DNA of 24,000 nt from Bacteroidota bacterium (GCA_037134755.1 JBAXLO010000008.1:14011-38010), one strand, 5' to 3'. Counted from the first letter of the stretch, positions 1 to 24,000 are shown. Numbers and translations are program-made. The notes: generated by a model not told the origin, from the sequence alone.

Positions 1-1789
1 TAAGAATATCCTCTTCAACCTTATTATAATCTGAGTTATTTGCTATAATTGGTATCGGGTTTGAATCAGGCGCAACATCTATTTGTTCAATTGAATTTGT
101 AGTTATTTCAATTTCTCCAGATATGTTTGATGGTACCTTAAATGTCTCAAATAAAGATTTTGGCAATCCCCCTAGCATTCCATTTCTGAGTTCTGTAGTC
201 GTATCCCCCCATAGCCTTAAAAGTATTCCTCTTTGTGTTGCAGTATTTGGGTCAATTTTTTTATTGCTTTCAGTATAATGAATAATTTTCCACCTTGGAA
301 TCGGTTGACTATCCAGTGTGAACCTAGACTCATTTAAAAGAAATCCTTCTGGATCAGTAACCCACATCGAAAGTACGTGCAAAATAACATTTTTTAAAAA
401 TACTCGTGGTGTCCTTCGTGCAACATCGAGGCTCTGGTATAGGTTCCATAACGCAGTCTCATTGAATGGGAATATGGAAAAATCCTTTTCCTGCTGCGAG
501 ACTATTGCCCATGGATATTCAGGTAATTTAGCAATTGGTATTGCCTCTTCGTATGCTCCTTTGTTAGCCCAATCGCAAATAATTTTTTCATCTAAATTTA
601 TTGCATTTATATACTTTGCTGCAAAATATGAAAGTTGCTTCTTGTTTCCAAGCATGGCTTCTTCTTTAATTAGTATATTATGTGTTACTCGATCTTTAAT
701 ATTATCAGGAATGCTATTCCAATAGAAGCTAGTTGTCGCTCCGCATATGGAACTGATTCTACAAAACTCACCATTTCCTTCTGCTGAGTGGTTTGTTATC
801 AAAACTTCCATCAATGCATTATCTAATCCAGAAAACGATGTAATATCCTCTATAAACAAAGTCAACTTGTTACCTTGCTTTTTCAATATACTTCTTAATG
901 ATGCAAATAAGTTCTTAAAGTCAGCCGATTCAAGATTTAGGCTTCGTTGAATAACTGATGATACTTTAGAGTTGAGATATTCAGCAACCTTGTTTCTTAG
1001 TTCGCTTCCTTCGCCTTCCGTAGCAAATTTCTCAGCTAGTCTAATTGTATTTCCTGCAGCTCCTGCATTTGCAATATCAAGATTCTGTTTAATTTGTTGT
1101 AATGTTATTTTGAAATCCTTGGCTGCAAAGATCTGATCTTCATTTTGATTAATAGTTCCGTCTTCTTTTGTTCCAAGTTTTGCGCAAATTTTACTTAATG
1201 GGCCATTGTCCACAAGTAAAAAGGTATTAATTATATACTCATCAGTTAAGTAGCTTTTGAGCCAATCTCTATATCTTTCGTCTAATAAATCATTTCCCGC
1301 TTCCTTATCTTTATCAATTTCAAGTGTAAAATTAAAATTTATCGTTTTCTTTAATTCTTCCCCAGTAATATTTCCTTTTGCATTTCTGATAATTCTAAGT
1401 TCATTCTCCTTTATTTCTTCAGGGAATAAATCAGCATCTATAATCTGTTTTAATGCATCTTGAAGAGTGTTGTGCGCTCGTGAAATTAATAAAACAACTT
1501 CTTTTTCATTTGCCTGCTTTTGATATTTTTCTTTAAGCCATCTAATTAAGTGAGATTTTCCAGACCCATTACTTCCCTGGATAAGAATGAGTTTATGTTC
1601 TTCAGGACTATCACATATTATTTCCTGGAAAAGCTTATTTTCATTGAGCGAGTCCTCTTTGGATCCAGTTCCCTTTTGTAAATATAAATTCTCAAAAGGA
1701 ATGTGAGTCGCAAGAAAATCAGCGATTGAAGGTGTTGTTGCTTCAGTTTGAATAACTTGACTTAATCTTTTCAGCCTTTGCGCATCCAT
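1..1789 (-). CDS. P-loop NTPase, BrxC/PglY-like or KAP-like Walker A; partial, 3' end beyond the left window edge
   Basis: Not in the supplied ORF track because no stop lies in the window. Hand translation from the ATG at 1789..1787 stays open to base 1 (596 codons): MDAQRLKRLSQVIQTEATTPSIADFLATHIPFENLYLQKG... Walker A is LILIQGSNGSGKSHLIRWL (GSNGSGKS = 1553..1576). A Walker-B-like LTLFIEDIT lies near 838..864. The start is 5 nt after the stop of the upstream gene. Confidence 0.8.
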   Translation of the reverse strand, partial: MDAQRLKRLSQVIQTEATTPSIADFLATHIPFENLYLQKGTGSKEDSLNENKLFQEIICDSPEEHKLILIQGSNGSGKSHLIRWLKEKYQKQANEKEVVLLISRAHNTLQDALKQIIDADLFPEEIKENELRIIRNAKGNITGEELKKTINFNFTLEIDKDKEAGNDLLDERYRDWLKSYLTDEYIINTFLLVDNGPLSKICAKLGTKEDGTINQNEDQIFAAKDFKITLQQIKQNLDIANAGAAGNTIRLAEKFATEGEGSELRNKVAEYLNSKVSSVIQRSLNLESADFKNLFASLRSILKKQGNKLTLFIEDITSFSGLDNALMEVLITNHSAEGNGEFCRISSICGATTSFYWNSIPDNIKDRVTHNILIKEEAMLGNKKQLSYFAAKYINAINLDEKIICDWANKGAYEEAIPIAKLPEYPWAIVSQQEKDFSIFPFNETALWNLYQSLDVARRTPRVFLKNVILHVLSMWVTDPEGFLLNESRFTLDSQPIPRWKIIHYTESNKKIDPNTATQRGILLRLWGDTTTELRNGMLGGLPKSLFETFKVPSNISGEIEITTNSIEQIDVAPDSNPIPIIANNSDYNKVEEDIL

Positions 1790-1794
1790 AAATT

Positions 1795-2589
1795 TTACCT
1801 CACAATTATTTCTGAAATCATATTTGTTTCCGGATATTGTATTGAATTTGTTAAGTGCCATATATCACTAGTATCAGGGATATATTTTAATTCTATAATT
1901 TTCTGGTTATTTAATATCCGTAGTGCCATTGATAAGCTTTGCTTGATTCGATTATCTTTTATTGTATTAAGATATTGTGGTGAATCAATAATTAATTGAT
2001 TGATGAACATTTTGACTGGAATTTTTTTACCACTTTCAAATGGTTTCTTAAATTTCAACCAATCACAAATATTATTATTGCACCCAAATACTAATGTTGA
2101 ACCAGCCCCTGCCTTTTGGAATGTAGCTAATCCAAGTGCCACAGCCCAATATCTGAAGCCTAAAATAAAGTCTTTTTCTATGTTAATTCCAAACTCAATT
2201 TCCCTAGGTATTTTATTTTTTAGTTCTTCTGCGGACTTATAACTAAACACATTACTTTGTTGACCAAGATACCATTTTACTAATAGTGTAAATGCCGTAT
2301 CCTTTTCTTTAAAAATATTATCTGCAATAGTAAACCTAAGAATATTAAAATTTCTTAATTGTTCTTCTGTAAAATCAGTAGATACTTTTTCACCATTTAT
2401 TAATTTAATGAAATTGCAATCCAATGAAAACTTAAAAACCCTATCATATGCTGTAGTATTTTCATGGCCTAACGTTATTAATTTTTTAAATTCTTCTTTT
2501 CTATATTTATCTTTTGCTCCTGCAAGCTTACAAATAATATAGACCATTTCTGGCATGCATTCTTGCCTTAATGAGTCTGCAATAATCAT
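1795..2589 (-). CDS. hypothetical protein, 264 aa, no recognised motif
   Basis: ATG start 2 nt after the stop of the RecQ-like gene. A GGGGG-type SD sits inside the upstream gene's 3' end. Its stop is 5 nt before the next start. Amino-acid composition looks like normal coding sequence. Confidence 0.7.
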   Translation of the reverse strand: MIIADSLRQECMPEMVYIICKLAGAKDKYRKEEFKKLITLGHENTTAYDRVFKFSLDCNFIKLINGEKVSTDFTEEQLRNFNILRFTIADNIFKEKDTAFTLLVKWYLGQQSNVFSYKSAEELKNKIPREIEFGINIEKDFILGFRYWAVALGLATFQKAGAGSTLVFGCNNNICDWLKFKKPFESGKKIPVKMFINQLIIDSPQYLNTIKDNRIKQSLSMALRILNNQKIIELKYIPDTSDIWHLTNSIQYPETNMISEIIVR

Positions 2590-2591
2590 AA

Positions 2592-5084
2592 TTATTTTCC
2601 CCCTTCAACATAAAAATTATAACTTATTTCAATGTCAGCTAAATCGCTTAAACGCTTCTCTTCCGACTTAATATATTGAGAAGATGGGCCAATATGAATT
2701 ATGCGATTGGCTTGATTTTTTGCAATATATTTATTTGAAAAGTCAAAATATTTATCAGTTAGATATTCATTTTCATTATAAATAATTGCGCATACACCAT
2801 TAAGCCATTTATATCCGATTTTCATAAATTCATCTAATGTTAATATCATGTATGCGTTAAATTCGTAAATGGATATAGCCTCAAGTATATCCTCTCCTTT
2901 TGTAATATTTGGTGTAATTATAATATTTACTTTGTTTTTTATTAAATAGCTAAAACACTCTGTATATTTATCAGCCTTTATATAAACACTATTTTGAAGT
3001 AATATTTGCTTATTTGAAATAACAATTTGTTGAAAAGGCGTATTAAAATTTATTAAATTAGTATCTAAGATATTATCTTTACTACTTTTGATTCCAATTT
3101 TACCCTCTTTGAAAGCAATCCCGAAGGACTTGTTTCTACAGTAAGGGCAGCCACTACAAACTTCCTGTGCATATGGGAATTCATCTATAAATATTGTTGA
3201 GAAACAGTTCTTTTTTGCGCTTTTTATCAATTTTTTTATAGACTTTATTCCTTCGCTTATCCTTGTTCTTTCATTGGCTCTAAAATTTGTAAGATATGTT
3301 GATAACTTTTCCGAATTCTCAAGTATGGATATTTGCACCAATTCAACAAGCATTTTATAGCCATTATTACTCGAAATATCAACATCTATTATCCTAAGAA
3401 GATTGCTTTTTAGCATGAATATTATTACATCTTTATTCCAACCGGCATTTTGTTGTCCTGTAGTTTCATATTTAAGATGTTCTGGCGCAATCTTAACATC
3501 TAACCATACTTTATTTGGGCCTTCTCCTGCCTTAGCGTTTGAATACATTGCTTTCCATCTTTTTACAATATTATCGACCGTTAATATTGAGGATTTAGTT
3601 AAGTTGTTTATAATTTCATTATCCTCAGTTTCATTAATCAACCAGTAGCAAAGGGACGTGCATCCATCCCTCCCAGCCCTTCCTATTTCTTGATAGTATC
3701 TACTCACATTTTCTGGTATATAGGAAGTTATTATTGTCCTGATGTCTTCTTTATCAACTCCCATACCAAATGCTGACGTTGCAATAATTATATCAATTTC
3801 GTCTTTTCTCCATTGTTCAAGTATTCTCTCCCTATCGCTATTTTTGGTTTCACCGGTGAATAACTCCAAGTAGGAAAACCCTAATTCTTTTAATTTATTA
3901 TAATAAGTTTTGGCAATTTCAGGTCTACTAGTGTAAACGATTAAAGGTTTTGGCGCTTGTTTAACAAGTTTAACCAGTATATCCTTCCTTTCTTCCTCAT
4001 CATTACATTTATGCATATAAAATTTAGGCTCTGGTCTTAATTCATCGGCCCTGAATTCAGTCAGAAAGTCATCATCGAAAATTATTTTTAATATTTCTGT
4101 GTCTTCCATAGTTAATGTTGCCGACAGCAATATTGTTTTTAGCCCTGACTCAGAAAGCTCTTTAATCTGATTTCGAAACGATCCTAGAAGTTGAAATTCA
4201 GGTCTAAATTTAATCCCCCAGCTAACGACCAAGTGTGCTTCATCGATAACAAGTGCACTTATTTTAGAATTTTTTGCCGATGCAAGGATTTTTTCTTTAA
4301 ATTCTTTATGCATCAAAGCCTCAGGCGAAATATATAAAATTGAAAGTGTGTTGTTATCAATCCCTTCAAAAATCCTGTTTTTATTTTTTTGATCAATCCC
4401 TGAATAATATGCAGCGCAAAATGTTGAAGAGAATTCGCACTTAGCATATAATTGCTTTGTTGAGATTTCGTGATCTATTGCAAGTGCAATAGTTGGAACA
4501 ACCACAATAATTAGGCCGTCATACATGTTTGATAGCGCCGGTAGTTGCCAGGCAAGGCTTTTCCCTCCCCCAGTTGGCAAACAAGCTAGTAATGTTTCAT
4601 TTTTTTTCATATTTGAAATTACATAAATTAACATCTTTTGAGATAAGGAAGTATAATTTTCATATCCTAAATATCTATATAACGTCCCATCTCCAAATGA
4701 CTTTTTTGTTCTCCTACTTTTAATATTTGAATATGAAGATCTTAAGTCATCAATATCATTAGCAATATTAACTTCTATAGTCAATTCAATATTATTATTG
4801 GTCGTGTCAAAAATAAAACCAAATGGCATTTTGTGCATGTAAATTTTATCGTACAATTCATTTGAGATTAAAATTCCACTTTGAAAATATTGCATGCATT
4901 GTCTTATGTGACCGCAAAAGTCAACGATGTTATCTTCTTTTAATGATTTCAGTGCTCTTAGCACGCATCTATATTTTAGAGGCTCATTTGCATCGCTTAT
5001 TAAACTATCAATTTTACCGATAGCAATATCAACGTCTAAATCATTAAATATAACTTTTTGAATTAATAGGATTGTTGGCTCCAT
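2592..5084 (-). CDS. RecQ-like SF2 DEAH helicase with N- and C-terminal extensions
   Basis: Motif I is CLPTGGGKSLAWQLPAL (4557..4577). Motif II is VIDEAHLVVSWG (DEAH 4233..4244), followed by the RecQ-typical FRPEF. Motif III is LLSATLT. Motifs V-VI are IIIATSAFGMGVDKEDIRTIITSYIPENVSRYYQEIGRAGRDG. Cysteines C627-x15-C643-x2-C646-x2-C649 have RecQ zinc-motif spacing. Confidence 0.85.
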   Translation of the reverse strand: MEPTILLIQKVIFNDLDVDIAIGKIDSLISDANEPLKYRCVLRALKSLKEDNIVDFCGHIRQCMQYFQSGILISNELYDKIYMHKMPFGFIFDTTNNNIELTIEVNIANDIDDLRSSYSNIKSRRTKKSFGDGTLYRYLGYENYTSLSQKMLIYVISNMKKNETLLACLPTGGGKSLAWQLPALSNMYDGLIIVVVPTIALAIDHEISTKQLYAKCEFSSTFCAAYYSGIDQKNKNRIFEGIDNNTLSILYISPEALMHKEFKEKILASAKNSKISALVIDEAHLVVSWGIKFRPEFQLLGSFRNQIKELSESGLKTILLSATLTMEDTEILKIIFDDDFLTEFRADELRPEPKFYMHKCNDEEERKDILVKLVKQAPKPLIVYTSRPEIAKTYYNKLKELGFSYLELFTGETKNSDRERILEQWRKDEIDIIIATSAFGMGVDKEDIRTIITSYIPENVSRYYQEIGRAGRDGCTSLCYWLINETEDNEIINNLTKSSILTVDNIVKRWKAMYSNAKAGEGPNKVWLDVKIAPEHLKYETTGQQNAGWNKDVIIFMLKSNLLRIIDVDISSNNGYKMLVELVQISILENSEKLSTYLTNFRANERTRISEGIKSIKKLIKSAKKNCFSTIFIDEFPYAQEVCSGCPYCRNKSFGIAFKEGKIGIKSSKDNILDTNLINFNTPFQQIVISNKQILLQNSVYIKADKYTECFSYLIKNKVNIIITPNITKGEDILEAISIYEFNAYMILTLDEFMKIGYKWLNGVCAIIYNENEYLTDKYFDFSNKYIAKNQANRIIHIGPSSQYIKSEEKRLSDLADIEISYNFYVEGGK

Positions 5085-5092: not shown

Positions 5093-8000
5093 TCACCCCT
5101 TTTTAAAAACAGTAAATGCAATAGAATCTAATTCTATTATTGGGTTTGTTAATCCATAAATCAGTGCTTCTATAATGTCTTGAGTTAAGCAATATGTATT
5201 AATATCATTTATCCCATAGAATATCTCTCTTGCTTTCTTTGAGTTGAATTGGTTGTCAAGTTCTTCTCTCGCTCTTGTTATATCAGTAAAAATTTTAGCT
5301 TGCTCCGCTGCAATACCTTTGCCGGTTTTGTATGCAGCTTTCACATACTTTTCCCAATTCACCTTTGGATATTTATTTTTAAATGCATTAATCATTCCAT
5401 TTTCTCGTTTTCCGAGATGCATTGGTCTTTTATGCGTTACTTCTTCTAGTTGCCTCAGAATGTTGTATTCACTTATTGAATCCCACTTAATATTCAATGG
5501 CGCGGTGTTAATTACCTGCTTGTTATAAATAAATCTGCTAATCAATGTATAAATCTCTAAAGGATATCCCTTTTCAATTAGTTTTATTGGATTATAGTTT
5601 ATATTCCAGGTTGTTATTAATCCAATCCATTCAATTTCGCAATTTGAATATAAAAATGCGCAACATCTTCCTTTATAACATTCTTCTGCATTTCTTGTGA
5701 TGCTATCAAAGAATGGATTAAAAGGTGCAAAAAAACCTAAATTTTCATGTTTTATAGCCGCAGCCCTTGAAAACGTACCCCAAATATCATTTTTGTATCT
5801 CGCTCGGCTAATCAGCTCATCCATTCTAGGAGGGAAGTATAAAGAATTGAACATGCTACGCGCATTTAATTGTGTTGTGTCAACTTTTATTATTTTATAT
5901 CCATCTTTATATGCATTTGTAACTGTAACGTTCTCGAATCCTGCCATAGATGGCCATATCAACATTGTATCCATCAATCTTTTTCCATCGTTCTCGGTAA
6001 ATTTGATTATTAGCTCATTTAACTTTTTTTGTAAAAACGGATCAAGTTGTCTTGCCAAATCAAAGTATCTTTCTCTTTCAACTTCCGATTTCATTTTATT
6101 GTAGAATTCCTTAACATTCCCAAGTAATTTACCTAATCCAAATTTTGCATCGCTAATAAATGAGTTAGTAATTAAATCATTTAATTCTTCAAATATTATC
6201 TCCATTCCACATAATGATTCATCAAACATATTAAGTCCATTGCTATAGATGCTAAACAAATCATTTTCGATTGTATTCTCGGTAAAAAATACAATTGATA
6301 TAACATCTTTTCCTAGTTCTCTTCCTATCCTATCAAGCCTTCCAATTCTTTGTTCAATTAATGCTGGAGACCATGGTAAGTCAAAATGTATTATATAATC
6401 TGCAATCTGAAAGTTACGACCTTCACCCCCTGATTCATCACAAATAATAAATCTACAAAGATCATCGTTTTGAAATATTGTTGCCGATTCTTGCATTGCT
6501 TCTCTTGTTTTATTCGAATGAAATGAAGATGTCGAGTTTGTGCCAAAAAAAGATTCGAAACATTCTTCAAGTTTCAGCGCTGTTTCTGTAAAAGTTGTAA
6601 AAATAATATATTTTTTATTCTTTTCCAAATCCTCCTGGTCAATAAAGTCAATAACATTTGCAAATCTACTGTAGAATGATTCTATTTCATCAGATACATC
6701 TTTAATATTACTTATCTCTTGATTTGTTGCCCTTTTCCACTTTATATTTAACAACTTTATATTTTCAAGATAATCATTTTCGTTATCCAATAATTCAGAC
6801 TTTATATTGCTTCTTTCTTTTAGCACCACTTCCAACGCATAAGGTGAGCTAAAGAATGCGCTAAGTATTTTTTTTGCATACTCGAATAATTCGTGTTTTG
6901 GTTCTAAGTGTGATGAGAAAATATAATCTACATAATCAAGAACTTTTGACGAACAATTTTCTTCATTGAAATCTACATCAGCGCCCCTCATTTGATATGG
7001 TTTCATAATTAATTTTCTTGTAGTATTTTCATTTTCGATTTCAGTTCTTCTGTGCCTAATAATGTTTTTCTCTAATTGATAAAACTCTGCAATATATGCA
7101 AGGGATAGCCTAGCATATTTTATACCTTTATCATCAGAATCCCCATCGATGTTCATAATTAGTACTGAAAGCTTTTCATCACATATCTCTTGATTGATTT
7201 TTCTAAGCTTATTAATAAAGTCGCCTGATAAATTATATTCATTATAATCAGAAAGGTCTTTCATCATGTCATATACAAGATCCCTTATCTTGCGTTGCTT
7301 TTCCATTAAGTTAGTAAATTGAGTCAAATTGATAGTATCGAAACGTTTGGGATTCAATATTTTAAGTAATCTATAATATTCATCTTCGCGTTGTAAGATT
7401 GGTGTGGCACTAAGAAGAAGAAGCTCTTTTACATCGCCGGAAAAATTGTAAACTGAAGTATAAAGATTATTATTGTTAAGTAATTTATGAGTTTCATCTA
7501 CAACACACATGTCCCAATTAGCAAGTCTTTTTATTGTTTTTTCATTTTTTACAAAATCGCTTGTTGAAACTATAAGGAGTTTAGGCTCGCTTATTTCATC
7601 CACTCCCCATATTGGTATATTGAACCAGAATTTAAAAGAAAGCTCTGTTTGCCACTGATAAATAAGAGTGTCAGGAATAATAAATATAACTTTAGTCTTA
7701 GGTGACTTATCTATTTTACATTTAACAATTGAACATGCTTCGATAGTTTTTCCAAGTCCTACTTCATCAGCAAGCATTAATCTGCAAGGATTTTCTGATA
7801 AAGCTCTAATAATTGTATCTATTTGATGTGAAAATAAATGTACTCTTGTCCCAAGGAGGTTCTTGAATCCATATGGCGCATTATCAATCATATTCAATGA
7901 TTCACTAACAATTCTGCGATTTAAATACCATCTTGGGTTTTGCAATTCATAATTTAGCATTTGATATATTGGGTTAAAATTAGACCTGTTTAGAGAAGCT

Positions 8001-10782: not shown

Positions 10783-10790
10783 TTCCTCCT
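10783..10790 (-). promoter_or_regulatory. Shine-Dalgarno AGGAGGAA for the 237-aa coiled-coil gene
   Basis: Plus-strand ttcctcct. There are 8 nt between it and the ATG at 10774. It overlaps the last base of the upstream stop codon. Confidence 0.7.
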
Positions 10791-14211: not shown

Positions 14212-17200
14212 TCTTGCACCCCACTAATCATTTTACTCCAATTATACTTAGTCTTTTTCTTTGAGACTTCATAAGAAATATAAATTATTCTCTTGATTGC
14301 TCTTGTAATTGCTACATATAAAATTCTTGTCTCTTCTCTTCTTCTATCTATAATCTCGTCCTTTTGATAGTTTTCATAATGATTATTCTCGCAAATTATT
14401 TTGTAGTCTCTGCCTGTGATTCTGTATCCAACTTCATTTTTTGAATATATTAAATCAACCTCTCCTTTTGCTCTGGCACTTGAAATATCAAAGTTGCAAT
14501 AAGGAAGTAATATCGTATCAAATTCTAGCCCTTTCGCTTTATGAACAGTTGTGCATATTGCTTTTGCTTTAGATTTTTCAATATCATATGATTCTCTTGC
14601 TTCTTCTTCTTGTTTTGTTAATATCATTATTTCCAAGTAATCAGAAAGCTTATTTATCGTAATGTAATCGGTATTTGAAGCTATTATTAATTTTTCAAAT
14701 AATTGGTCAAGATTTCTTATATAATATGATTCCAATCTTTCTATCTCTTCTAAACCATCTGCCTGCGATTTAATTGCAAATGTTTCCCAAGGCTTAGTAT
14801 CGTTTACTATATCCCTTATTACTTTTAATGCCGGCTCTTCCGTCAATCTAGAAATATATTTATTCCATTTGTTTAAATTTTTAGGCAAATTATTATAGAA
14901 TAATTCTACAATTTCTTCTTCATTTAACCCTACTAACGAATTCTTTTCCAGTTCATCGATTATATAAGATGTTGTATATAGGTTATAGAGATATTTTGGC
15001 CATCTATTATGTTTAAGTGCAAGTACTAATTTAAACAAATCAATAGTTGGATCAATTCTAAATAGGTCTCCTCCTATTTCAGTCTCAATATTAATTTTGG
15101 CTTTTTTACATATTTCCTTAATATTGTTAACTTGCCAATTGTAGCGAACTAAAATTGCAATTTTATCATTTTCATTTTCAAGACTTGGTATATACTGCCT
15201 CAATGTATCGACCAACTTTTTCTCGAATTGGGGATCGCTAAACACTTTAATATTATATAATTCAGTAGAATCACATAATAACTTTGTTCCTATTAATATA
15301 TCTTCCTCTGAGTAATCTATATCTCCATTATTATTCCAAGCCCTGAAAACTTTATTCATTTGTTTCATAAGGTTACTATCAGTTCTGTAATTTTTATTAA
15401 GTGAAACTGTTGTAAATTGATTTTCATTGTCAAGCGTATCGAAAGCTTTGACCTGGGCTCCCCTGAATCTGTAAATACATTGTTTTATATCACCAACTAC
15501 GAAGAATTTATAATTAAATTGCTTTCTAAAATCTTTCATAAGTTGGATTTGAACATCATCTGTATCTTGAAATTCATCGACAAAAAGAAAATCAATATTA
15601 TCTTTCTGGAACGTAGGGTTTTCTTGGAGTTTAGTTAATAATATTCTCAGTTTTTTTATTAAGTTGCCAAGACTAACGGAGTTATTTGTATCACAATATT
15701 CATTCATTTCAACTTGAGTTGATTTAAGTTCTTCAATTAATTTATTAAAAATTTTATTATTTGGATTTCCAAAGTCAACATCTTTATCAGATATTTCAAC
15801 ATTTTTATCATCTAACTTCTCTAATAAATGCAAGAGCCTCTCTTGCAGATCATACATAGATATTTCTATTTTATCCTCTATTTCTTTATTTTTTTCTACA
15901 AAGTCATTTATATGCTTATGCAGGATCTCTTTCCTTTTATATTTGCCTGTTGTAATGCTAAATTCTCTTCCTAAGCCTAAAACATAGCCGTATTTCTTGA
16001 TAATATTTTTAGATAAAGCATGAATTGTTGAAATGTTCATATCTTCAATAGCTTCAATAAAATCTAAGAAGTCATTATTTTTAGTCAGTAAATAAATATT
16101 CAAAAAACTATCAGCAAGTTTTTCTTTCATCGCTTGGGCTGATTCATTTGTAAAAGTGATCATAATTATAGCTCTTTTTAAATCGTATGTGTCATAACCC
16201 TTTTCCCATATCAAATATTGAATCCTAGAAATTATAACGTAGGTCTTTCCAGTGCCTGCCCCAGCCTTCACGATGATGTCCTCAAGTTTCGCATGCTCAA
16301 TAGAATACTGCCCTAAATTAAAGCTTGAGCTTTCATTTAGGCTAACAAGTTGATTTGTATATTTTCCTGATTCGCTTCCATTTATTATTTCAAATGATTC
16401 TGCGTTAACTTCCGTTAAGCTTAGATCGAAGTTAAAAGTGCTATTGCCGATAAATTTAAAATCTTTTCTGTCATCTAGTCCCATGCTTTTGATGCAACCT
16501 TCTATTTCCCCTCTAATTTTTATGAGAACATTTAGCGAAGTCACATATACATAAAATTTGGTTCCCGAATTCCATTCATGAATCATTTTTTCAAGATATG
16601 TTTTGTCAATTTCTTCATTATTTATAAAGATCAGTTTAGAGTAGTATCGCCTTACTAGCTTAATTTTATCTTTCTCTGCTTTTGAGTCGGGTTTCCCTTG
16701 CTTGTTTTCCGAACGAAATTCGGGGCTTACTAAATTCCCTACAGTATTTAATATTGGTTTGTCCAAACCATTTTTAATTAATCCAGGAATATTAATTTGT
16801 TCATATGCATCTTCAAATATTTTCTCGATTTTATCCTTCAAAGTTTTAGCGTTTTCTAGGTCTTCCATTGTAATCGTCATAATTGGGCCAGATATTTTGT
16901 TGAGATGTTTTGATTCATATTCTTTCTTATTAAGGAAAGGATAACAAACGCTACATGGCACATAAACTGAGTTAATGCCTGCATTATGAAGTATTTCAAT
17001 TAATTGAAATCTATATCTATTTGCTTGAGCTAGTGGAGATGGTATTGGTGGGTAATTCTTAAGATTAATTCTAGAATTATCTGGCACTTCGATAATATTC
17101 TTTGCTAGAAAACCCTTTATCTCTATAATTAATGCCCCAAGTTTTGGCACCAGTAGAATAATATCCACCTGCTTCTGCCCTAAGTAATAATTGTGAAAAC

Positions 17201-17294
17201 TTACATAATCTTCTGGTAATAGTTCTTTAAATTTTCTCCAGACGTAGTTTTCGCCTTCTGAATTTCCATCAAAGTCATTTATAGGTAATATCAT
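14208..17294 (-). CDS. NERD domain - UvrD/Rep-like SF1 helicase fusion, 1028 aa
   Basis: N-terminal NERD-like region YVWRKFKELLPEDYVSFHNYYLGQKQVDIILLVPKLGALIIEIKG contains D44...E58-x-K60 (17115..17165). Helicase motif I is VKAGAGTGKTYVI (16242..16262). Motif II is FLFVDEFQDTD. Motif III is VVGDIKQCIYRFRGA. Motif IV is NKNYRT. C-terminal motifs are TVHKAKGLEFDTILLP and LYVAITRAIKRI. Confidence 0.85.
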   Translation of the reverse strand: MILPINDFDGNSEGENYVWRKFKELLPEDYVSFHNYYLGQKQVDIILLVPKLGALIIEIKGFLAKNIIEVPDNSRINLKNYPPIPSPLAQANRYRFQLIEILHNAGINSVYVPCSVCYPFLNKKEYESKHLNKISGPIMTITMEDLENAKTLKDKIEKIFEDAYEQINIPGLIKNGLDKPILNTVGNLVSPEFRSENKQGKPDSKAEKDKIKLVRRYYSKLIFINNEEIDKTYLEKMIHEWNSGTKFYVYVTSLNVLIKIRGEIEGCIKSMGLDDRKDFKFIGNSTFNFDLSLTEVNAESFEIINGSESGKYTNQLVSLNESSSFNLGQYSIEHAKLEDIIVKAGAGTGKTYVIISRIQYLIWEKGYDTYDLKRAIIMITFTNESAQAMKEKLADSFLNIYLLTKNNDFLDFIEAIEDMNISTIHALSKNIIKKYGYVLGLGREFSITTGKYKRKEILHKHINDFVEKNKEIEDKIEISMYDLQERLLHLLEKLDDKNVEISDKDVDFGNPNNKIFNKLIEELKSTQVEMNEYCDTNNSVSLGNLIKKLRILLTKLQENPTFQKDNIDFLFVDEFQDTDDVQIQLMKDFRKQFNYKFFVVGDIKQCIYRFRGAQVKAFDTLDNENQFTTVSLNKNYRTDSNLMKQMNKVFRAWNNNGDIDYSEEDILIGTKLLCDSTELYNIKVFSDPQFEKKLVDTLRQYIPSLENENDKIAILVRYNWQVNNIKEICKKAKINIETEIGGDLFRIDPTIDLFKLVLALKHNRWPKYLYNLYTTSYIIDELEKNSLVGLNEEEIVELFYNNLPKNLNKWNKYISRLTEEPALKVIRDIVNDTKPWETFAIKSQADGLEEIERLESYYIRNLDQLFEKLIIASNTDYITINKLSDYLEIMILTKQEEEARESYDIEKSKAKAICTTVHKAKGLEFDTILLPYCNFDISSARAKGEVDLIYSKNEVGYRITGRDYKIICENNHYENYQKDEIIDRRREETRILYVAITRAIKRIIYISYEVSKKKTKYNWSKMISGVQE

Positions 17295-19372
17295 GAGCGT
17301 CCTCCATCTTCCAGATATGTTACTATTAGCTCATCTCTTGCTCTTGTTGACGCAACATATTTTTCACATTCAATTAGTTTGTCATAATATTCACCAATTT
17401 CTGGAGAATCACTTTCGATGCTTCTATAATTTTTTATATTGTTATAGTCAAATATTATAACGACCTCAAACTCAAGCCCTTTTACTCCCATAATAGTACA
17501 AATACACACTCCCTTATCTTTCCCCGGAATGATATCATCAATTAGCAAAGTTGATACTATCTCAGATAAAATTAGAACTGCTTTTATTTCATTGCTCTCT
17601 TTAATTGTAGGGCAAATAATGCAAATTTGATTTGGTGCTCTTCCAGTTTTTATTAGATCTTGAACCTTTGATGCTATAAATTTATACTGGCTTGCTTCAG
17701 TGGTAAAGCCCTCAACTAGGGGATCAGCGCCACTCACGATTGATTTATATTCTTTAATATGGCCATTGACCATCTCTGATTGTATGAATTGATATCTAGC
17801 ATAATCGTTTATTTGTTTAGTTGTTCTATAATTTATTGATAAATATTGCGTTCTTCCAACTATATTAATTTCTATTTTATTTTTCCATGTCCCAAGGTTA
17901 AATATCCTTTGATTCATATCAGAAAGTATAAATATATTATTTTCTTTGGTTTTTACACACTTGCATAACGCCTTAAGTTTGATTGGTTCTAAATCCTGGG
18001 CCTCATCGATAATAATTGAATCATATTCCGCGTGTATTGAGCCCTCAATTAGTCCACTATTCATTTTATGAGCTCGATCTACAAAGGTTGTAATACCTCG
18101 CAACCTTTTTTCGTTTAATAATACTTCGAAGAACTTCCAAACAATTATACGTTTTTTTTCGTTAAGAGGCATTCCCGTTCCAGTTCGATCAGCTAGAAGG
18201 TATTCGCTCTCTGTTGTTATATTATATTTTTCAATAACCTCGTTATATTCAAATTGGTAAAACCCTTTTGTTCCCTTAGGTTTAAGTTGCTCATAAATCG
18301 TTGTAATTAACTTTTGCATACCTTGTGTATCGACATTTTGGATATGCCCATAAGCGTTGTTTAATGTAGAAAGTATAAAGCTATCAATTCCTACAACATC
18401 TATATTGTTCTTAATTCCCTTTATACGAATTAATTCCTCAACCTTCTCATTAATACTTTTGGCTAACTTTTTACTAAAAGTGCAAATTAAAATTTTCTTT
18501 CCGTCTTCAGACTTGTAAACATTTTGTGATAGGTAAATTGCTCTATGTATACCCACTATTGTTTTACCTGTTCCTGGGCCGCCTTCGATGAGTGCGGGGC
18601 CATTGAAATTCTTCTTAACAATCTCTTCTTGGCTTGGGTGAAGGAATAAAGTCCATTTTTCGAACGAATCATTGTCAGTCAAAATCTGTAATTCCTCTAA
18701 GGAATCAACTAAATAAAACCTTCTCTTGCTATCTTTATGATTTATTGAATTTTGAGTATCTTGATATTTATCATCAACTAACTCATTATAAATGGTTTCA
18801 TAGCTTTTAATACCAGACGCTAAATCTAGTAAAGCTTCTTGAATTTCTGAGGGAAAGATTGTAACGTAATCTAGATATTTATCCTCATTGGAAATGTTAA
18901 TTAAATTCTCTGCATGAATTTCGGCAATCCCAAGTTTTATTAAATTTTTAGCCTTAATGTTATTTGCTTTTAATAAAGACTTCTCTTCAATCATTTCATA
19001 TGGCTCATTTTGTTTAAGTTGATCTTCTTTATTATTCATAAGATTTTCATCATATATATATTCTGCCCCGAACTTTGTCTTATTTAAAGACTTACCCTCG
19101 CACCAATCATATGCTTGATCATGATGATCAACATATAAAATAGTGAAAATATCGCCCTGGGGTACAAATATCATTCTAATATCATCATTTACCCTTGCAC
19201 TTCTAAATTTCGGATCACACTTGACTCTATCAATACTATGGACTTGTAGCGATGCGCTTTTATGATTTTCAGATAATAAATTAATTGTATTTAAGGTAAG
19301 CTTTCTTGACTGTGCATCTAGTTTGAACACACTACTTAAGTAAGACTCTGTAATTGCAATATTCTTATCCAT
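17291..19372 (-). CDS. UvrD-like SF1 helicase with a distinct ~95-aa N-terminal domain, 693 aa
   Basis: Motif I is LIEGGPGTGKTIVGIHRA (18560..18580). ILICTFSKKLA. Motif II is IIIDEAQDLEP. SDMNQRIF. INYRTTKQI. TIMGVKGLEFEVVIIFD. YVASTRARDELIV. GAGGTG SD at 19377..19382. Confidence 0.85.
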   Translation of the reverse strand: MDKNIAITESYLSSVFKLDAQSRKLTLNTINLLSENHKSASLQVHSIDRVKCDPKFRSARVNDDIRMIFVPQGDIFTILYVDHHDQAYDWCEGKSLNKTKFGAEYIYDENLMNNKEDQLKQNEPYEMIEEKSLLKANNIKAKNLIKLGIAEIHAENLINISNEDKYLDYVTIFPSEIQEALLDLASGIKSYETIYNELVDDKYQDTQNSINHKDSKRRFYLVDSLEELQILTDNDSFEKWTLFLHPSQEEIVKKNFNGPALIEGGPGTGKTIVGIHRAIYLSQNVYKSEDGKKILICTFSKKLAKSINEKVEELIRIKGIKNNIDVVGIDSFILSTLNNAYGHIQNVDTQGMQKLITTIYEQLKPKGTKGFYQFEYNEVIEKYNITTESEYLLADRTGTGMPLNEKKRIIVWKFFEVLLNEKRLRGITTFVDRAHKMNSGLIEGSIHAEYDSIIIDEAQDLEPIKLKALCKCVKTKENNIFILSDMNQRIFNLGTWKNKIEINIVGRTQYLSINYRTTKQINDYARYQFIQSEMVNGHIKEYKSIVSGADPLVEGFTTEASQYKFIASKVQDLIKTGRAPNQICIICPTIKESNEIKAVLILSEIVSTLLIDDIIPGKDKGVCICTIMGVKGLEFEVVIIFDYNNIKNYRSIESDSPEIGEYYDKLIECEKYVASTRARDELIVTYLEDGGRS

Positions 19373-19376
19373 TTAG

Positions 19377-19382
19377 CACCTC
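19377..19382 (-). promoter_or_regulatory. Shine-Dalgarno GAGGTG for the first UvrD-like helicase gene
   Basis: Plus-strand cacctc inside the 16-nt dndA-helicase gap, 4-6 nt before the ATG at 19372. Confidence 0.6.
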
Positions 19383-19388
19383 GGCATT

Positions 19389-20582
19389 TTAGATATTATT
19401 AATAATAAAATTCAATGCATCCATTATTTCAGACTTAGATGTTTTAGTTCCATAAGATATTCTCAGAACATTTCCTGTCATATTCTCAAGACCTATTGCC
19501 TTCAAGACGTGAGATGGTTGGCCTGCTGTACATGCAGAGCCAGATGAAAGGCAGTATTTATCGCTTATTTTCTTTATAAATCTTTCATTATTAAAATCTT
19601 CATTTTTAATTATTAAGCTTAATATCCCTGGGAGTTTATTGTCAGGGTCTCCCAATATTTCAATGCCTTCTATTTTTTTTAAAAGTGAATTTATCTCTCT
19701 ATCAATTTCTAAATAATGCTGCTGATTTTTAGCCTTATCCCTAATAACTATCTCCGCAGCCTTACCAAAACCAACAATATTATGAACGGCTAAAGTTCCA
19801 GCCCTAAGACCATTTTCTTGTTCTCCTCCGTGAATTAGTGAGGATATTGGAGGTAAACCAAAATCATCTTCCCGAATATATGCTGCTCCTACTCCTTTAG
19901 GTCCGTTTAATTTATGTGCAGAGAAAGAAAGAAAATCTACTTTAGTCTTCTCGACATCTACATCTATCTTCGCTATAACTTGAGTTGCATCAGAATGAAT
20001 GGGAACCATCTTGCTGTGAGATATTTCAGCAAGTTTTAAAATGTCATTAATGGTTCCTATTTCATTATTTCCCCATATTAATGAGACAAGAATTGTCGAA
20101 TTCTTTATATTGTCCAACAAATTTTCAGGTTCAACTTGTGCATATTTGTTTACTTCTAAGAAAGTTACTTCATACCCTCTATCTACCTTTAAAATTTTAT
20201 CAGTTATAGAGAAAGAAGAATCTTTATTTGAATATAATTCTCCATTTAAGAATTTGCATGTGTTTAAAGTTGCCTTATGCTCAACCATTGATGTTATAAT
20301 ATGATTTCCTTTTTTAGTATAAAGCTTCTGGTAGTCAGCTATACCTTTGATGATCATGTTCGTACTTTCAGTTGCGCCTGAGGTGAAAACAATGCTTTGT
20401 GGCTGCGTATTGATTAGTTTAGCCACCCAGAGTCGACTTTCTTCAACTGCTTCTTTTGCTGAAGCAGCTAGTTTATAATACTTACTTGAGGGGTTTCCAT
20501 ATTCTAAAGTTAGATAAGGAATCATTGCCTCATAAACTTCTTTAGCGATTGGCGTTGTAGCGCAATAATCCAAATATGTCAT
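19389..20582 (-). CDS. dndA: cysteine desulfurase (NifS/IscS class V aminotransferase), DndA by context
   Basis: TSGATESTN. PLP-lysine motif SFSAHKLNGPKGVGAAYI (K224). Active-site cysteine loop LSSGSACTAG (C351). ATGA overlap with dndE. Confidence 0.88.
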   Translation of the reverse strand: MTYLDYCATTPIAKEVYEAMIPYLTLEYGNPSSKYYKLAASAKEAVEESRLWVAKLINTQPQSIVFTSGATESTNMIIKGIADYQKLYTKKGNHIITSMVEHKATLNTCKFLNGELYSNKDSSFSITDKILKVDRGYEVTFLEVNKYAQVEPENLLDNIKNSTILVSLIWGNNEIGTINDILKLAEISHSKMVPIHSDATQVIAKIDVDVEKTKVDFLSFSAHKLNGPKGVGAAYIREDDFGLPPISSLIHGGEQENGLRAGTLAVHNIVGFGKAAEIVIRDKAKNQQHYLEIDREINSLLKKIEGIEILGDPDNKLPGILSLIIKNEDFNNERFIKKISDKYCLSSGSACTAGQPSHVLKAIGLENMTGNVLRISYGTKTSKSEIMDALNFIINNI

Positions 20583-20959
20583 ACGGTGTCACCAACTCCT
20601 AAGTTTTGCATTACATATCTGTCCAAAGATCCTGCATGATTATACATATCTAATAATAACTTAGAGCCTCTATCAATATGCGCCTTAACATAATGCGGAA
20701 AATAATCGTCTTCAGGCAAGTTTTTGCCTTCCACTTGTTCTATCATTACTTTAAAATAAGCATCGTAATCACCAGTTATTGTTTGCCTATTCAAGTCTAA
20801 ACCCTCTGAATCAGATTTAAACTTTTCTACTGAAGTCCCTTGTCTTAAAGACCAACAGATAGCATGTTTAACCAAGGTATAAGGCCTTAAGTGCATTCGG
20901 CTCTCAAGCTCTTTAAAAATTGTTTCTGTTTCCTTTGAAGTTTTTAATCTAAAAATCAT
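20579..20959 (-). CDS. dndE: DNA sulfur modification protein DndE
   Basis: A 126-aa protein between dndD and the desulfurase, overlapping both by 4 nt (ATGA). The N-terminal FRLKTSKETETIFKELESRMHLRPYTLVKHAICWSL resembles the DndE family as I remember it. Size and position are typical. Confidence 0.8.
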   Translation of the reverse strand: MIFRLKTSKETETIFKELESRMHLRPYTLVKHAICWSLRQGTSVEKFKSDSEGLDLNRQTITGDYDAYFKVMIEQVEGKNLPEDDYFPHYVKAHIDRGSKLLLDMYNHAGSLDRYVMQNLGVGDTV

Positions 20960-23154
20960 AAGTTATCACCCCTAAAAAAGTAACCTGTATTTACAATTGT
21001 CTTGCTAATTGTCTCGTCGTATTCCAACAAGTACTCTTGCCCAATAAATGGCTTTATTACTTTATAGTAAGTTTTATTTATTTCTTCATCCGTTGAAAAT
21101 ATGATTACTTGGTCACTTATTGATGGGAAAAACTCTCTTGAAATTTGTTCTCTATGTTCAGTATCAATTCTCGCATATGGTGTATCAATAATGAATGGTA
21201 AATCTTTCCCCGATGCTTTAATAATTGCCCAATAAAGACACAGTATGAATATTTGCTTTTCACCTTTTGAAAGTTGGTTAAGCTCAATTTTCTTAAAAAT
21301 TGAAATAGAAATATCATCAAAAATCCCAACTTGATCCTGTGACTTTTTTAGAATATTTTTTAATTGGGAGAACGAATTGATATTAAAATGATTTAAGAGA
21401 ATTTCTACGCCTTTTCCACCAATTCTTTTTGACAATTCATCCAATCCTATATTTTGAATTAATCTGCTCAATTCTTTGTATTGATAACTTTGGATTTTAT
21501 ACAAATTTATATTAAACTTGTTGTCTATTTCGACTAAGTCTATGAGATTCTCTTTTCTCATTATTTTTTTTAACATATTAAGAGATAGCTCTTCAATTTG
21601 CTTATATTTTGTATCTAGCATTTTATCAATAATTTGGCTCATTACAAAACTAGTCTTTTGAGTCAGTTCATATATGTTCTTATCTTTTGCATTAGCTTTG
21701 ATTTTCTCCATAACTAGAGTTTTATTAGTATTTAATTCATCATAGCGTGATTTTATATCTTGTTCTTCGGCAACTATTAAATCAAGTTTAGCTTTTGTTT
21801 CATATTCTGATTCAGTTAATTCGGTGAACTGTTTTGAAAACGAATTAAAGTCAATCTCAGATAAAGTATCTCTGAGAATTTTATTTAATCTTGAAGTTTC
21901 TTGTGCGAGGCTAGTTTTGGCATTTATCATTAAGATCATTTTTTTAGCATCAAATTTATTAATATCTTCAAGAACCGCACTAACTTTACTATTCTGCTCT
22001 TGCGATAAATCGTGAATAAGTTCTAACTCTTCAGTGTCTTGATCGTTATCTGGTCTCCAGTCTGCTATAAGTTTTTTTGCCAAGTCTTTCGCAAAATTAT
22101 CCACATCAATGGAGCTAATTTTATTAGTATTTAAAGATTCAATTACTGAATTCTTGAATTCGTCTGATTCTAATTTATTTTTTAATATATTATATTGTTG
22201 CACTTCAGTTTCTAAGGAAATTTGTTTCTTAACGTTTGAAGCAATATCCTTTGTTATTATAAAAGGCATTAAACCCTCAAGGTAGTTCTTTATATTAATG
22301 CTAATCTCATCCTTCGCGCGTTCCTTATCCTTAAGTTGGTTATTTAATTCCTCTCGCTCATTCTCACTCATTCCACCTGATTCCTTGAACCTTTTATCAA
22401 GTATCTCTTTATCTGAATATATTTCAGCTAATTTTTCATTGTAACTCGTTTCCTTTTTCTCAAGATCAGCAATTTGTTCATTAACTTGATCAATGCTAGC
22501 CTTTATAAGATCATATTCCTGAGTTAATAAAATAATCTCTTCTGAGTTTTCGCTGCTGCTAATATAGTTTTCAGTAAATTTCTTTATCAATTCAAAAGTA
22601 TCTAAAGAGCATAATGTTAAAAATGCATTTTTTAGATATGAATTATAATTATTTGAAGCAAAAAATTTTGCAACTTCCTCACCATCAAAGAAAAAATAAT
22701 CAAATAGATTTGGAGGTAGTTCATTGAATAAATAATTATTAAAGAAAACAATGTCATCACTATCTAACTGCTTATCTTTATAAAATATTTTAAGATTTTC
22801 TGTTATCCTTTGATTATTAAAATTCCACTCTCTTCTAACAATGTAGTTTTTTCTTTCCCTTTCATCAACAATTTCAAAATCTACCTCTATATATGCACTT
22901 ACTTCTTTGTTTGAATAAGCATCATCGTTTATTAGCTCTTTTATTTTTGATAAGTAGAATGCACTATTAGTCTGATAGTTAAAGCATAGTGGTCCATAAA
23001 GTGCTAGTTTTATCGCTGTAAAAAGAGAAGTCTTGCCAGTGCCGTTTTGACCTCCGATTAACACTATTTTCTTATCCTGACCTAAGGTAAAATCAAATTC
23101 AAATTCACCCAAATATGAGCTAAAATTACATAATTTTATCTTATTGATTCTCAT
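20956..23154 (-). CDS. dndD: DNA sulfur modification protein DndD (SMC/ABC-like ATPase)
   Basis: N-terminal MRINKIKLCNFSSYLGEFEFDF...LIGGQNGTGKTSLFTAIKLALYG (Walker A 23029..23055). Long central coiled-coil. ABC signature-like LSKGEKQIFILCLYWAI. Walker B PFIIDTPYARID. Overlaps dndC by 14 nt. Confidence 0.9.
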   Translation of the reverse strand: MRINKIKLCNFSSYLGEFEFDFTLGQDKKIVLIGGQNGTGKTSLFTAIKLALYGPLCFNYQTNSAFYLSKIKELINDDAYSNKEVSAYIEVDFEIVDERERKNYIVRREWNFNNQRITENLKIFYKDKQLDSDDIVFFNNYLFNELPPNLFDYFFFDGEEVAKFFASNNYNSYLKNAFLTLCSLDTFELIKKFTENYISSSENSEEIILLTQEYDLIKASIDQVNEQIADLEKKETSYNEKLAEIYSDKEILDKRFKESGGMSENEREELNNQLKDKERAKDEISINIKNYLEGLMPFIITKDIASNVKKQISLETEVQQYNILKNKLESDEFKNSVIESLNTNKISSIDVDNFAKDLAKKLIADWRPDNDQDTEELELIHDLSQEQNSKVSAVLEDINKFDAKKMILMINAKTSLAQETSRLNKILRDTLSEIDFNSFSKQFTELTESEYETKAKLDLIVAEEQDIKSRYDELNTNKTLVMEKIKANAKDKNIYELTQKTSFVMSQIIDKMLDTKYKQIEELSLNMLKKIMRKENLIDLVEIDNKFNINLYKIQSYQYKELSRLIQNIGLDELSKRIGGKGVEILLNHFNINSFSQLKNILKKSQDQVGIFDDISISIFKKIELNQLSKGEKQIFILCLYWAIIKASGKDLPFIIDTPYARIDTEHREQISREFFPSISDQVIIFSTDEEINKTYYKVIKPFIGQEYLLEYDETISKTIVNTGYFFRGDNL

Positions 23155-24000
23155 TTTCGATCTCCCTCATCACGTCAAAATGCAGCCATTGCTGAGTTAA
23201 TGATTTTTCAAGAGCATTCCGTAAAATTTTGGGATTTGAGAAGTGTTTATTTTTTGTTGTTTCGAAAATTAACTTTTTAATCAAATCAAATGGCACATCT
23301 GTTGAAGTTGAAAGTTCTTCTAATTTAGAAATTGTTTCAGCGTCAAATAATGGCTTTTTGAGGTCATGCCATGGTAATTTCTCTCCTATTTCACTTTCAT
23401 AAAGCTCAACTAATGTTCTTCTGCCTAGATCTAATTCTTCATCCCATATCTTGTCTATTGCCTTTAATTCTTCATTAGTAATAAGCTCATAATTCATTTC
23501 CTTTTGAATTTTTAATAATTCTCTTAATATCATTTGTCTAGCTTCCCAGGTAAACGGTCCATATCCCATATCTCCAGCAGCCGTGATATATATACTCCCG
23601 TCCCTTCGCTTCTTTTGTCTATTTTCAGAAATATCTCTTTCATCCATTAGCCATTTCCTAAATCTTGCCAAAGGAATTAACTCTCTATGGCCGTTGCGAA
23701 TAAAGCCATTAAGCGATTTGTCTTCTTTTACAACTGTGCATATCCAACAACCGAATCTCGACTGACCGCATGTTTGTGTTTGTTCATTCTTAACTGTTAT
23801 GCCCGCGAAAGGACATTCCCCACTATCTGCGTCAGTATAAAGTTCTATAATTTTTGCGTTAGTTGTTCCCCATGGAGTAGTCTTCGCTGACAAAATATCC
23901 CAAACATCTTCTGTTGTTAATTCTGATATAGGAGAATATACAAACGCTTGTTTTAGAGTATCGTGCCTATTAAGCAATTTCCCTATTATTTCTCTATCTT
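23141..24000 (-). CDS. dndC: DNA phosphorothioation protein DndC (PAPS-reductase-like, Fe-S), C-terminal part only
   Basis: Cysteine cluster GECPFAGITVKNEQTQTCGQSRFGCWICTV (23738..23815) is the DndC hallmark as I remember it. The listed start at 23977 is a TTG. The frame stays open upstream to base 24000 (...DREIIGKLLNRH), so the true N-terminus lies outside the window. Confidence 0.9.
   Translation of the reverse strand, partial: DREIIGKLLNRHDTLKQAFVYSPISELTTEDVWDILSAKTTPWGTTNAKIIELYTDADSGECPFAGITVKNEQTQTCGQSRFGCWICTVVKEDKSLNGFIRNGHRELIPLARFRKWLMDERDISENRQKKRRDGSIYITAAGDMGYGPFTWEARQMILRELLKIQKEMNYELITNEELKAIDKIWDEELDLGRRTLVELYESEIGEKLPWHDLKKPLFDAETISKLEELSTSTDVPFDLIKKLIFETTKNKHFSNPKILRNALEKSLTQQWLHFDVMREIENENQ

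Follow-up and report, generated by a model that had tools for sequence, protein, structure and literature searches.

Which genes restrict unmarked DNA in bacteria that carry dnd genes for phosphorothioate (PT) modification and are without dndFGH? Many dnd clusters, especially those of gut Bacillota, are of this kind, and how unmarked DNA is restricted there is an open question (PMC10853773; PMC12914056). The question is raised by a 24,000-nucleotide (nt) stretch of DNA from a Bacteroidota bacterium (GCA_037134755.1 JBAXLO010000008.1:14011-38010), which we analysed at its full length and call the window. It carries dndC, dndD, dndE and dndA followed by ten genes, and no DndF, DndG or DndH was found in it (the only match, of a DpdH homologue to DndF at 2e-6, covered just the P-loop). 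Going by gene content and sequence matches, this operon is probably a PT-based, restriction-modification-like defence that combines a Dnd writer, a Dpd-like set and an AddAB-like effector encoded by two genes that we call g6 and g7.

All 14 genes of the window lie on the minus strand in an open reading frame (ORF) listing, and the window ends cut two of them, dndC at the high end and the DpdH homologue at the low end (Table 1). From dndC onward, the coordinates give overlaps of 14 nt (dndC/dndD), 4 nt and 4 nt, a 16-nt gap, and two more overlaps of 4 nt; after the overlap of g6 and g7 come gaps of 2, 15, 14, 31, 8, 2 and 5 nt. All four 4-nt overlaps are ATGA on the minus strand, and a purine-rich site resembling a Shine-Dalgarno sequence (GGAG/GAGG-type) lies 5' of each start codon. 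On recomputation, the gene count, strand, junctions and ATGA overlaps reported in the initial annotation, which was made from the sequence alone, were exactly reproduced. In that annotation the array also looked like one transcription unit. The junctions are operon-like, and a scan of the window found no promoter-like or terminator-like match at any of them; such matches occurred at the level of shuffled sequence, so the scans are uninformative, and a single transcription unit is plausible. The only plus-strand ORFs of at least 120 amino acids (aa) are at 318-725, 5697-6104 and 10275-10649 (124-135 aa each), and we dismissed them as shadow ORFs because they run antisense within minus-strand genes. 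An independent metagenome contig (L180; our comparison loci carry L numbers) has the identical 14-gene order at ~47% protein identity, so the order is far from chance. Flanks beyond the window were read on an 83.8-kb contig with the same locus (GCA_964616105.1, a Eubacteriales metagenome-assembled genome), and several other assemblies share the locus.

Of this operon, only the Dnd and DpdE-H parts have names in the family databases (PADLOC 2.0, NCBIfam 20.0 and Pfam). Matches in all three bear out the identification of dndCDEA, and full-length DndC (from L009, part of the source contig) reaches 407 bits on TIGR03183 (cutoff 290). The dndA product matches PADLOC's SspA (3e-121) as well as DndA, and its 363 bits on TIGR03235 are under the cutoff of 480. 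We read it as DndA rather than as a general IscS because its gene has an ATGA overlap with dndE. By these matches, dndC, dndD, dndE and dndA together are the standard Dnd writer. There is no dndB upstream of dndC in the flank of the source contig.

At the other end of the operon, four genes had been described as encoding a SNF2 ATPase, a RecQ-like helicase, an orphan and a P-loop NTPase. These are homologues of DpdE, DpdF, DpdG and DpdH, which had been missed, and they stand in the canonical Dpd order E-F-G-H. (The SNF2 call was itself correct by family matches, as were the SF1, or superfamily 1, helicase and Hsp70 calls.) Dpd is a 7-deazaguanine restriction-modification system encoded by dpdA-K (Thiaville et al. 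2016; PMC10164549); its restriction phenotype is given by DpdD-K, whose individual roles are not known (PMC10164549). Since the homologues are in canonical order, part of the downstream block belongs to a described restriction module. The DpdG homologue has the weakest scores of the four, and its position between DpdF and DpdH is kept in 140 loci. Full-length DpdH (1025 aa) reaches 256 bits on NF041065 (cutoff 450), and its Walker A motif (GSGKSH) and FIEDI motif are invariant in our alignment (A2). Walker A and DExx motifs are intact in the translations of DpdE, DpdF, DpdH and g5, an SF1 helicase gene upstream of g6. Large P-loop ATPases of the DpdH type have been called BrxC-like (bioRxiv 2025.09.15.676423); PADLOC's hidden Markov models (HMMs) gave no BrxC similarity for DpdH, its predicted model had no significant match among solved folds, and its profile found nothing significant among the PDB sequences.

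Just past the low end of the window, the source contig encodes a 227-aa protein whose gene overlaps the end of DpdH. Among the loci anchored on DpdH, this gene falls in a cluster of DpdI-like proteins of ~220 aa, and its homologue in a canonical Dpd cluster (L103) occupies the DpdI position; in that cluster DpdJ (1213 bits), DpdK and DpdD pass the NCBIfam cutoffs. We therefore speak of a DpdI-like gene, assigned by position and BLAST only.

Where a canonical Dpd operon has DpdJ and DpdK, the window has g6 and g7. The best NCBIfam match of g6 is AddA, at 137 bits against a cutoff of 707. Across 73 homologues, the residues E15, D44, E58 and K60 and the full set of SF1 motifs show little or no variation, and g6 is expected to be an active nuclease-helicase. 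For g7 there was no match in Pfam, NCBIfam or PADLOC. Its AlphaFold 2 model (predicted local distance difference test score 85, predicted template-modelling score 0.73) has AddB chains as its top Foldseek matches (4cei_B and 3u4q_B; E 3e-10, template-modelling score ~0.48), followed by RecC and UvrD-type helicases. Four cysteines (C756, C900, C903 and C909) are kept in 85% or more of 111 sequences. Fold match and conservation thus agree with the earlier description of g7 as an AddB-like protein with four conserved cysteines. We found no conserved Walker A motif in g7 and no conserved acidic or lysine nuclease residues between the cysteine positions. A profile search against the PDB sequences gave nothing significant, with a Cas4 match on the C-terminal cysteine cluster at E 0.46. 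The g7 protein is probably a scaffold that holds an iron-sulfur cluster. Its family is large and entirely unnamed, with 124 homologues in a word-indexed search and 460 representatives at 50% identity in an exhaustive one.

Some members of this family are found in other settings. Homologues of ~1400 aa occur as P0110-P0112 and in L030, L032, L051, L055, L062, L069 and L070; the copies found in the protein database have a PIN domain (PF13638). A search of plasmids found only distant g7 relatives, without DpdE-H. One of them, on the 35-kb plasmid pJS1-2 of Geobacillus zalihae (L095, 13921-20894), is part of a minimal set consisting of an 856-aa helicase, the 909-aa g7-like protein, a 74-aa protein and a 472-aa helicase, with neither DpdE-H nor dnd genes. 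In a phage collection, a g7 homologue was found in one unannotated faecal contig only, the 8.3-kb "Bacteriophage sp." MT836883.1 (5472-7424; 25% identity, E 6e-50), which may be mis-binned or a mobile element.

The initial annotation had named co-occurrence across genomes as a check on whether the downstream genes belong with dnd. We collected loci anchored on g7 by a pattern scan in which each species was represented by one genome, with tblastn and ORF clustering (130 species found, 80 loci kept), and added loci anchored on DpdH from look-ups and a metagenome scan. The sample is thus anchored on g7 and DpdH, its metagenome contigs are not dereplicated, flanks extend to at most 10 kb, and ORFs of the comparison loci were called mechanically. 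Of the 80 g7-anchored loci, 77 have g6, 72 DpdE, 68 DpdF, 64 DpdG and 65 DpdH. Those that miss cassette genes are mostly on short or truncated contigs; L016, L018 and L028 are rearranged or without parts. In the pooled loci we counted DpdH 148 times, DpdF 141, DpdG 140, DpdE 126, g7 121 and g6 112. In more than 100 loci, found in Bacillota, Bacteroidota, Thermotogota and Yersinia, g6-g7 and DpdE-I form an unbroken series, and median gaps between cassette neighbours are -8 to 11 nt. The ten downstream genes are therefore not the indivisible unit that they had been taken for: the conserved partner of dnd is g6-g7-DpdE-F-G-H-I, and the rest is confined to a sub-lineage.

The DpdE-I core is also found with other effectors: with DpdJ, DpdK and DpdD in soil loci; with an MZB protein plus a NERD-helicase, together with dndBCDEA, in L150 and L173; and with a split DpdJ-like set, a C5-methylase and Vsr in Selenomonas. 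In the last case, a Selenomonas ruminantium metagenome contig (L093), genes for a 1197-aa helicase, an MZB/DUF1998 protein and a NERD-helicase come after the core, which is preceded by a C5 DNA methylase, a DUF2971 protein and Vsr; here the same DpdE-I chassis may occur in a form linked to methylation. In the closest GTDB relative of the window (L012/L179, 21489-22784), an unrelated 431-454 aa protein with an Mrr-like C-terminus stands at the place of DpdG. The DpdH-like gene of Yersinia had no DNA match in 5,426 complete E. coli genomes.

The cassette adjoins dnd genes in dozens of genomes, in two layouts. Among the 60 loci with at least 5 kb visible upstream of g6, 17 have dndCDEA directly there, and the median gap from dndA to g6 across loci is 15 nt (16 nt separate dndA from g5 in the window). 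Downstream, dndBCDEA or dndCDEA directly follows in 24 of the 32 loci with at least 5 kb visible past DpdH/I, on the strand of the cassette and at a distance of 22-156 nt from DpdI. Because 10-kb flanks do not show both sides of any locus, we matched lineages by DpdF identity (at least 50%). When a locus had no dnd upstream, its closest relative carried dnd downstream in 22 of 24 cases (the other two are of the Halalkalibacter type); when dnd was present upstream, this was so in 0 of 12. The upstream and downstream layouts are therefore complementary, and in the lineages that could be matched, the cassette is almost always linked to dnd. In Yersinia enterocolitica the cassette adjoins dndBCDEA, and in Halalkalibacter (L092) it lies beside canonical DndFGH (687, 503 and 2850 bits). 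We had looked for a common alternative modification module upstream of g6 in the loci without upstream dnd; nothing is conserved there, and dnd was found downstream instead. We also considered the XpaC/TelA/rhomboid-like genes 3' of some cassettes as members and judged them to be ordinary flanking genes.

Other genes are found in and around these dnd modules. Upstream of dndC, after a 187-nt gap, L009 (4624-8445) encodes a 286-aa LRR protein and a 975-aa protein with PLD, SF2 helicase and DUF3427 domains; the latter has a weak match (80 bits, cutoff 600) to TIGR04095, "dnd restriction enzyme". These genes place the operon in a defence island. GmrSD/DUF262-type genes (600-650 aa) lie inside or beside the dnd module in L012/L179 (~3000-4806) and, between dndE and dndA, in L050, L064 and L078. 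A ~272-aa Mrr-like restriction endonuclease with an N-terminal helix-turn-helix is encoded between dndA and g6 in L050, L054, L075, L078, L081 and L088. An HNH protein of ~395 aa follows dndA in L097, L118, L120, L134, L142, L144, L165, L170, L173 and L174, and in most of these it is accompanied by a ~200-aa S-adenosylmethionine (SAM)-dependent methyltransferase, which we did not see in L097, L170 and L173. In L005 (14626-16268; source contig, beyond the low end of the window), a 213-aa SAM-methyltransferase and a 341-aa HNH protein come after the DpdI-like gene; they may or may not be members of the system.

The remaining genes of the window, g5, g8, g9 and the Hsp70 gene (g10), have a much narrower distribution. 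We found g5 only in L012, L013, L018, L176, L178, L179 and L180. Its N-terminal domain of ~100 aa (19013-19372) has invariant H45, D53, R60, N62, R66, Y80, H84, D85 and W90 (alignment A3); by eye it looks RelE/ParE-like, and a profile search of the PDB sequences returned only "toxin" chains, at E ~1. With an HMM built from its family, g8 was found in 14 loci, always after g7. In most of these a variable gene of 170-500 aa comes after g8, which is not in every ORF map (for example L019 and L022). The g9 gene occurs only with the Hsp70 (L012, L096, L176, L178, L179 and L180). The Hsp70 aligns to DnaK 6-492 over its residues 5-539, with intact DLGTSN, EEPTAA, DFGGGTLD and GGSSQIP motifs; it has the nucleotide-binding and beta substrate-binding domains and is without a helical lid. 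It belongs to a discrete subfamily of ~87 clusters, in which scores run from 729 to 266 bits and then fall to 162, and ten contigs, matched by size, are common to the g7, DpdH and Hsp70 match lists. Pfam searches at E up to 5 gave nothing credible for g8, g9, the DpdI-like protein, DpdG, the g5 N-terminus, the Hsp70 C-terminus or three variable insert proteins. L181 is without g5 and Hsp70, and L179/L012 has a window-like Hsp70 variant plus a GmrSD gene.

In three Bacillales genomes, g5-g6-g7-g8-g9-Hsp70 form a six-gene block without DpdE-H (Table 1). Since the block stands alone in Halobacillus, g6 and g7 can work in other contexts. On these distributions, we regard g5, g8, g9 and the Hsp70 as a lineage-specific accessory module.

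Table 1. Genes of the window, in the order of transcription, and occurrences of the six-gene block. Gene positions are those of the window; block positions are those of the named locus.
Feature	Position	Strand	Length (aa)	Description and matches
dndC, 3' part	23141..24000	-	460 in source contig	PAPS-reductase-like sulfurtransferase; PADLOC DndC 6e-67
dndD	20956..23154	-	732	SMC/ABC-like ATPase; TIGR03185 370.7 bits (cutoff 245.85); PADLOC DndD 2e-115
dndE	20579..20959	-	126	PF08870 DndE 85 bits (cutoff 25); ATGA overlap with dndD
dndA	19389..20582	-	397	Cysteine desulfurase; PADLOC DndA 5e-121 (402 bits); Pfam Aminotran_5
g5	17291..19372	-	693	UvrD/GajB-like SF1 helicase; Pfam UvrD-helicase, UvrD_C, AAA_19; PADLOC NERD+UvrD, GajB
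g6	14208..17294	-	1028	NERD nuclease fused to AddA/UvrD-like SF1 helicase; Pfam NERD, UvrD-helicase, UvrD_C
g7	11437..14211	-	924	AddB-fold protein (AlphaFold 2 and Foldseek); four conserved Cys
g8	10790..11434	-	214	Orphan, optional accessory directly after g7; no family match
g9	10061..10774	-	237	Orphan, largely helical or coiled-coil; no family match
g10	8397..10046	-	549	Hsp70-like ATPase; Pfam HSP70 184 bits
DpdE homologue	5093..8365	-	1090	SNF2/RapA-like ATPase; NF041062 342.6 bits, full length (cutoff 500); PADLOC DpdE 2.7e-77
DpdF homologue	2592..5084	-	830	RecQ-like SF2 helicase; NF041063 505.8 bits (cutoff 550); PADLOC DpdF 3e-125
DpdG homologue	1795..2589	-	264	NF041064 32.8 bits (cutoff 80); weak precomputed Pfam match to PF28110 DpdG
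DpdH homologue	1..1789	-	N-terminal 596 of 1025	P-loop ATPase; NF041065 220.8 bits; PADLOC DpdH 2.6e-36
Six-gene block	L178 481-11629			Halobacillus trueperi
Six-gene block	L176 582-11623			Paenibacillus roseipurpureus; dndB adjoins
Six-gene block	L177 475-11680			Bacillus sp. Marseille-P3661; disrupted by IS110; UvrD helicase downstream

How does this operon relate to described systems? With Dpd it shares DpdE, DpdF, DpdG, DpdH and a protein at the DpdI position, in the same order, and like Dpd it is a large operon rich in helicases and ATPases that is paired with a DNA-modification module. In contrast to Dpd, it has no preQ0 genes and uses dndCDEA as its writer. We found no DpdA, DpdB or DpdC in the window or in ~10 kb on either side, nor any PADLOC or NCBIfam match to them, and DpdD, DpdJ (a YprA helicase) and DpdK (a PLD nuclease) are absent from the window and its flanks; a NERD-UvrD protein and an AddB-like protein are found where Dpd has DpdJ and DpdK. 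With Dnd-DndFGH, Dnd-PbeABCD and Ssp-SspE/SspFGH, the operon shares the DndA, C, D, E writer and the logic of a PT mark with a linked restriction module. It does not contain the PbeABCD set (an HKD nuclease and SF2 helicase set): the PbeC models cross-match DndD, and PbeA matched at 7e-9 on a generic helicase C-terminal domain.

The effector pair recalls AddAB, RecBCD and AdnAB, by the AddA match of g6, by the resemblance of the g7 model to AddB and then RecC, and by the AddB/Cas4-type pattern of four cysteines in g7. It differs in that the nuclease of g6 is an N-terminal NERD domain, not the C-terminal RecB-type nuclease of AddAB, and in that g7 is without conserved nuclease residues; furthermore, AddAB has a housekeeping context, while these genes are in a defence island. 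With BREX and DISARM the operon shares an SNF2 helicase of the BrxHII/RapA type, as DpdE matches the BrxHI/II and DrmD models, and there is a precedent for an exchange of methylation for PT (PMC12839542, PMC12914056); BREX includes a PT-based type 4. PglZ, PglX, BrxL, YprA and DrmB of BREX, DISARM and ARMADA are lacking from the window. ArmD of ARMADA II is a UvrD helicase with a RelE-like N-terminus, which g5 may resemble. Both g5 and g6 match the GajB models of Gabija as generic UvrD helicases, and there is no GajA (OLD nuclease) in the window. Type III CoCoNuT operons encode CnuD, an Hsp70-like protein with degenerate Walker-like motifs (PMC10542128). As in the window, an Hsp70-like protein with nucleotide-binding and substrate-binding domains stands there beside a coiled-coil protein, but the motifs of the window's Hsp70 are intact and it belongs to a separate subfamily. 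No window protein matches McrB or McrC (CnuB, CnuC).

The initial annotation considered that the combination of genes was not a described system. This holds insofar as none of PADLOC, NCBIfam and Pfam assigns the ten genes to one system; it does not hold for DpdE-H. In the openly searchable full-text literature we found no paper that links dnd to DpdE-I, to a UvrD/AddB-like pair such as g6/g7 or to this Hsp70, so the combination of Dnd, Dpd/BREX-like and AddAB-like parts is apparently undescribed.

How might the parts act together? In a PT-based restriction-modification system, dndCDEA would mark the host DNA with PT. DpdE-I, as ATP-driven translocases and ATPases, would scan DNA and decide between self and non-self, and the g6/g7 pair, standing in for DpdJ and DpdK, would unwind unmarked DNA and degrade it. 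In this lineage, g5, g8, g9 and the Hsp70 would tune, regulate or assemble the effector. PT dependence, this division of labour, complex formation and anti-phage activity are all things that we infer. Several points weigh against this reading. No PT-sensing domain is recognisable in the ten downstream genes with Pfam, PADLOC or NCBIfam, and DpdE-H all score under the NCBIfam equivalog cutoffs. It has been argued that Dnd modification and the restriction genes next to it are, in function, often decoupled (PMC10853773). The six-gene block of Halobacillus has no dnd or DpdE-H genes in the visible ~0.5 kb upstream and 10 kb downstream. About 17 distant loci (Oscillospiraceae and others) fall outside our matching of dnd linkage within 10-kb flanks, and the linkage fractions themselves are rough because of the anchoring on g7 and DpdH and because contigs were not dereplicated.

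Some of these points would suit a stand-alone defence that is independent of PT and merely shares an operon and a mobile island with dnd. Rakesh, Aravind and Krishnan argue that DndABCDE and DndFGH are commonly decoupled and that the latter is stand-alone (PMC10853773); the solitary block in Halobacillus, the lack of a detected PT-reading domain in the ten genes and the location of the window in a defence island, with the PLD-helicase upstream, all fit as well. We nevertheless consider such independence unlikely. Linkage to dnd is close to universal in the matched lineages and takes two independent layouts, the dnd junctions are translationally tight (16 nt here, median 15 nt), and the homologous DpdD-K act in a modification-dependent system (PMC10164549). 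Furthermore, a processive nuclease-helicase without a self-mark would need another way to spare the host's DNA. It seems quite improbable that Dnd, the AddAB/Hsp70 module and a Dpd-like remnant are three unrelated systems that island shuffling has packed together and that have no joint function. Each module does occur separately (canonical Dpd, the stand-alone Hsp70 block and, according to the literature, dnd alone), and GmrSD, Mrr-like and IS110 insertions are found inside related loci. But g6-g7 are contiguous with DpdE-I in over 100 loci with median gaps of no more than 11 nt, the complete order is kept at ~47% identity, and in the window ATGA overlaps and gaps of 2-31 nt run across all of the module borders.

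The downstream genes might instead serve DNA maintenance, by repairing nicks and breaks that PT causes, and have no part in immunity. DndD nicks DNA and PT sites are redox-labile; g6 and g7 resemble the repair enzyme AddAB in fold and domains; and DpdF is RecQ-like. We think this very improbable, as the homologues of DpdD-K cause restriction and not repair (PMC10164549) and the loci occur sporadically, have been transferred horizontally and lie next to integrases and other defence genes. NERD has also replaced the AddA nuclease, and the nuclease site of g7 has been lost.

A broader proposal can be made, which we put forward tentatively and hold to be possible rather than probable. DpdE-I would be a modification-agnostic "restriction chassis" that works with unrelated self-marks and interchangeable effectors, and the block from g5 to Hsp70 would be an autonomous, undescribed defence with an Hsp70-controlled nuclease. 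The self-marks may be a PT backbone here and, in Dpd, a 7-deazaguanine base; Selenomonas possibly uses C5-methylation. The effectors may be AddAB-like, DpdJ/K, or MZB plus a NERD-helicase. Were the chassis agnostic in this way, self and non-self would not be told apart by direct chemical reading of one mark.

In summary, the cassette is recurrent, and it is a good and concrete candidate for the restriction partner that many "orphan" dnd clusters of gut bacteria are missing. It also shows that the Dpd restriction genes, which are poorly understood, are not tied to 7-deazaguanine: one and the same DpdE-I core accompanies a backbone mark and various nucleases, which limits how such systems could sense self. 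Finally, the Hsp70 sub-module puts a chaperone-type ATPase into a DNA-targeting defence operon, which is rare.

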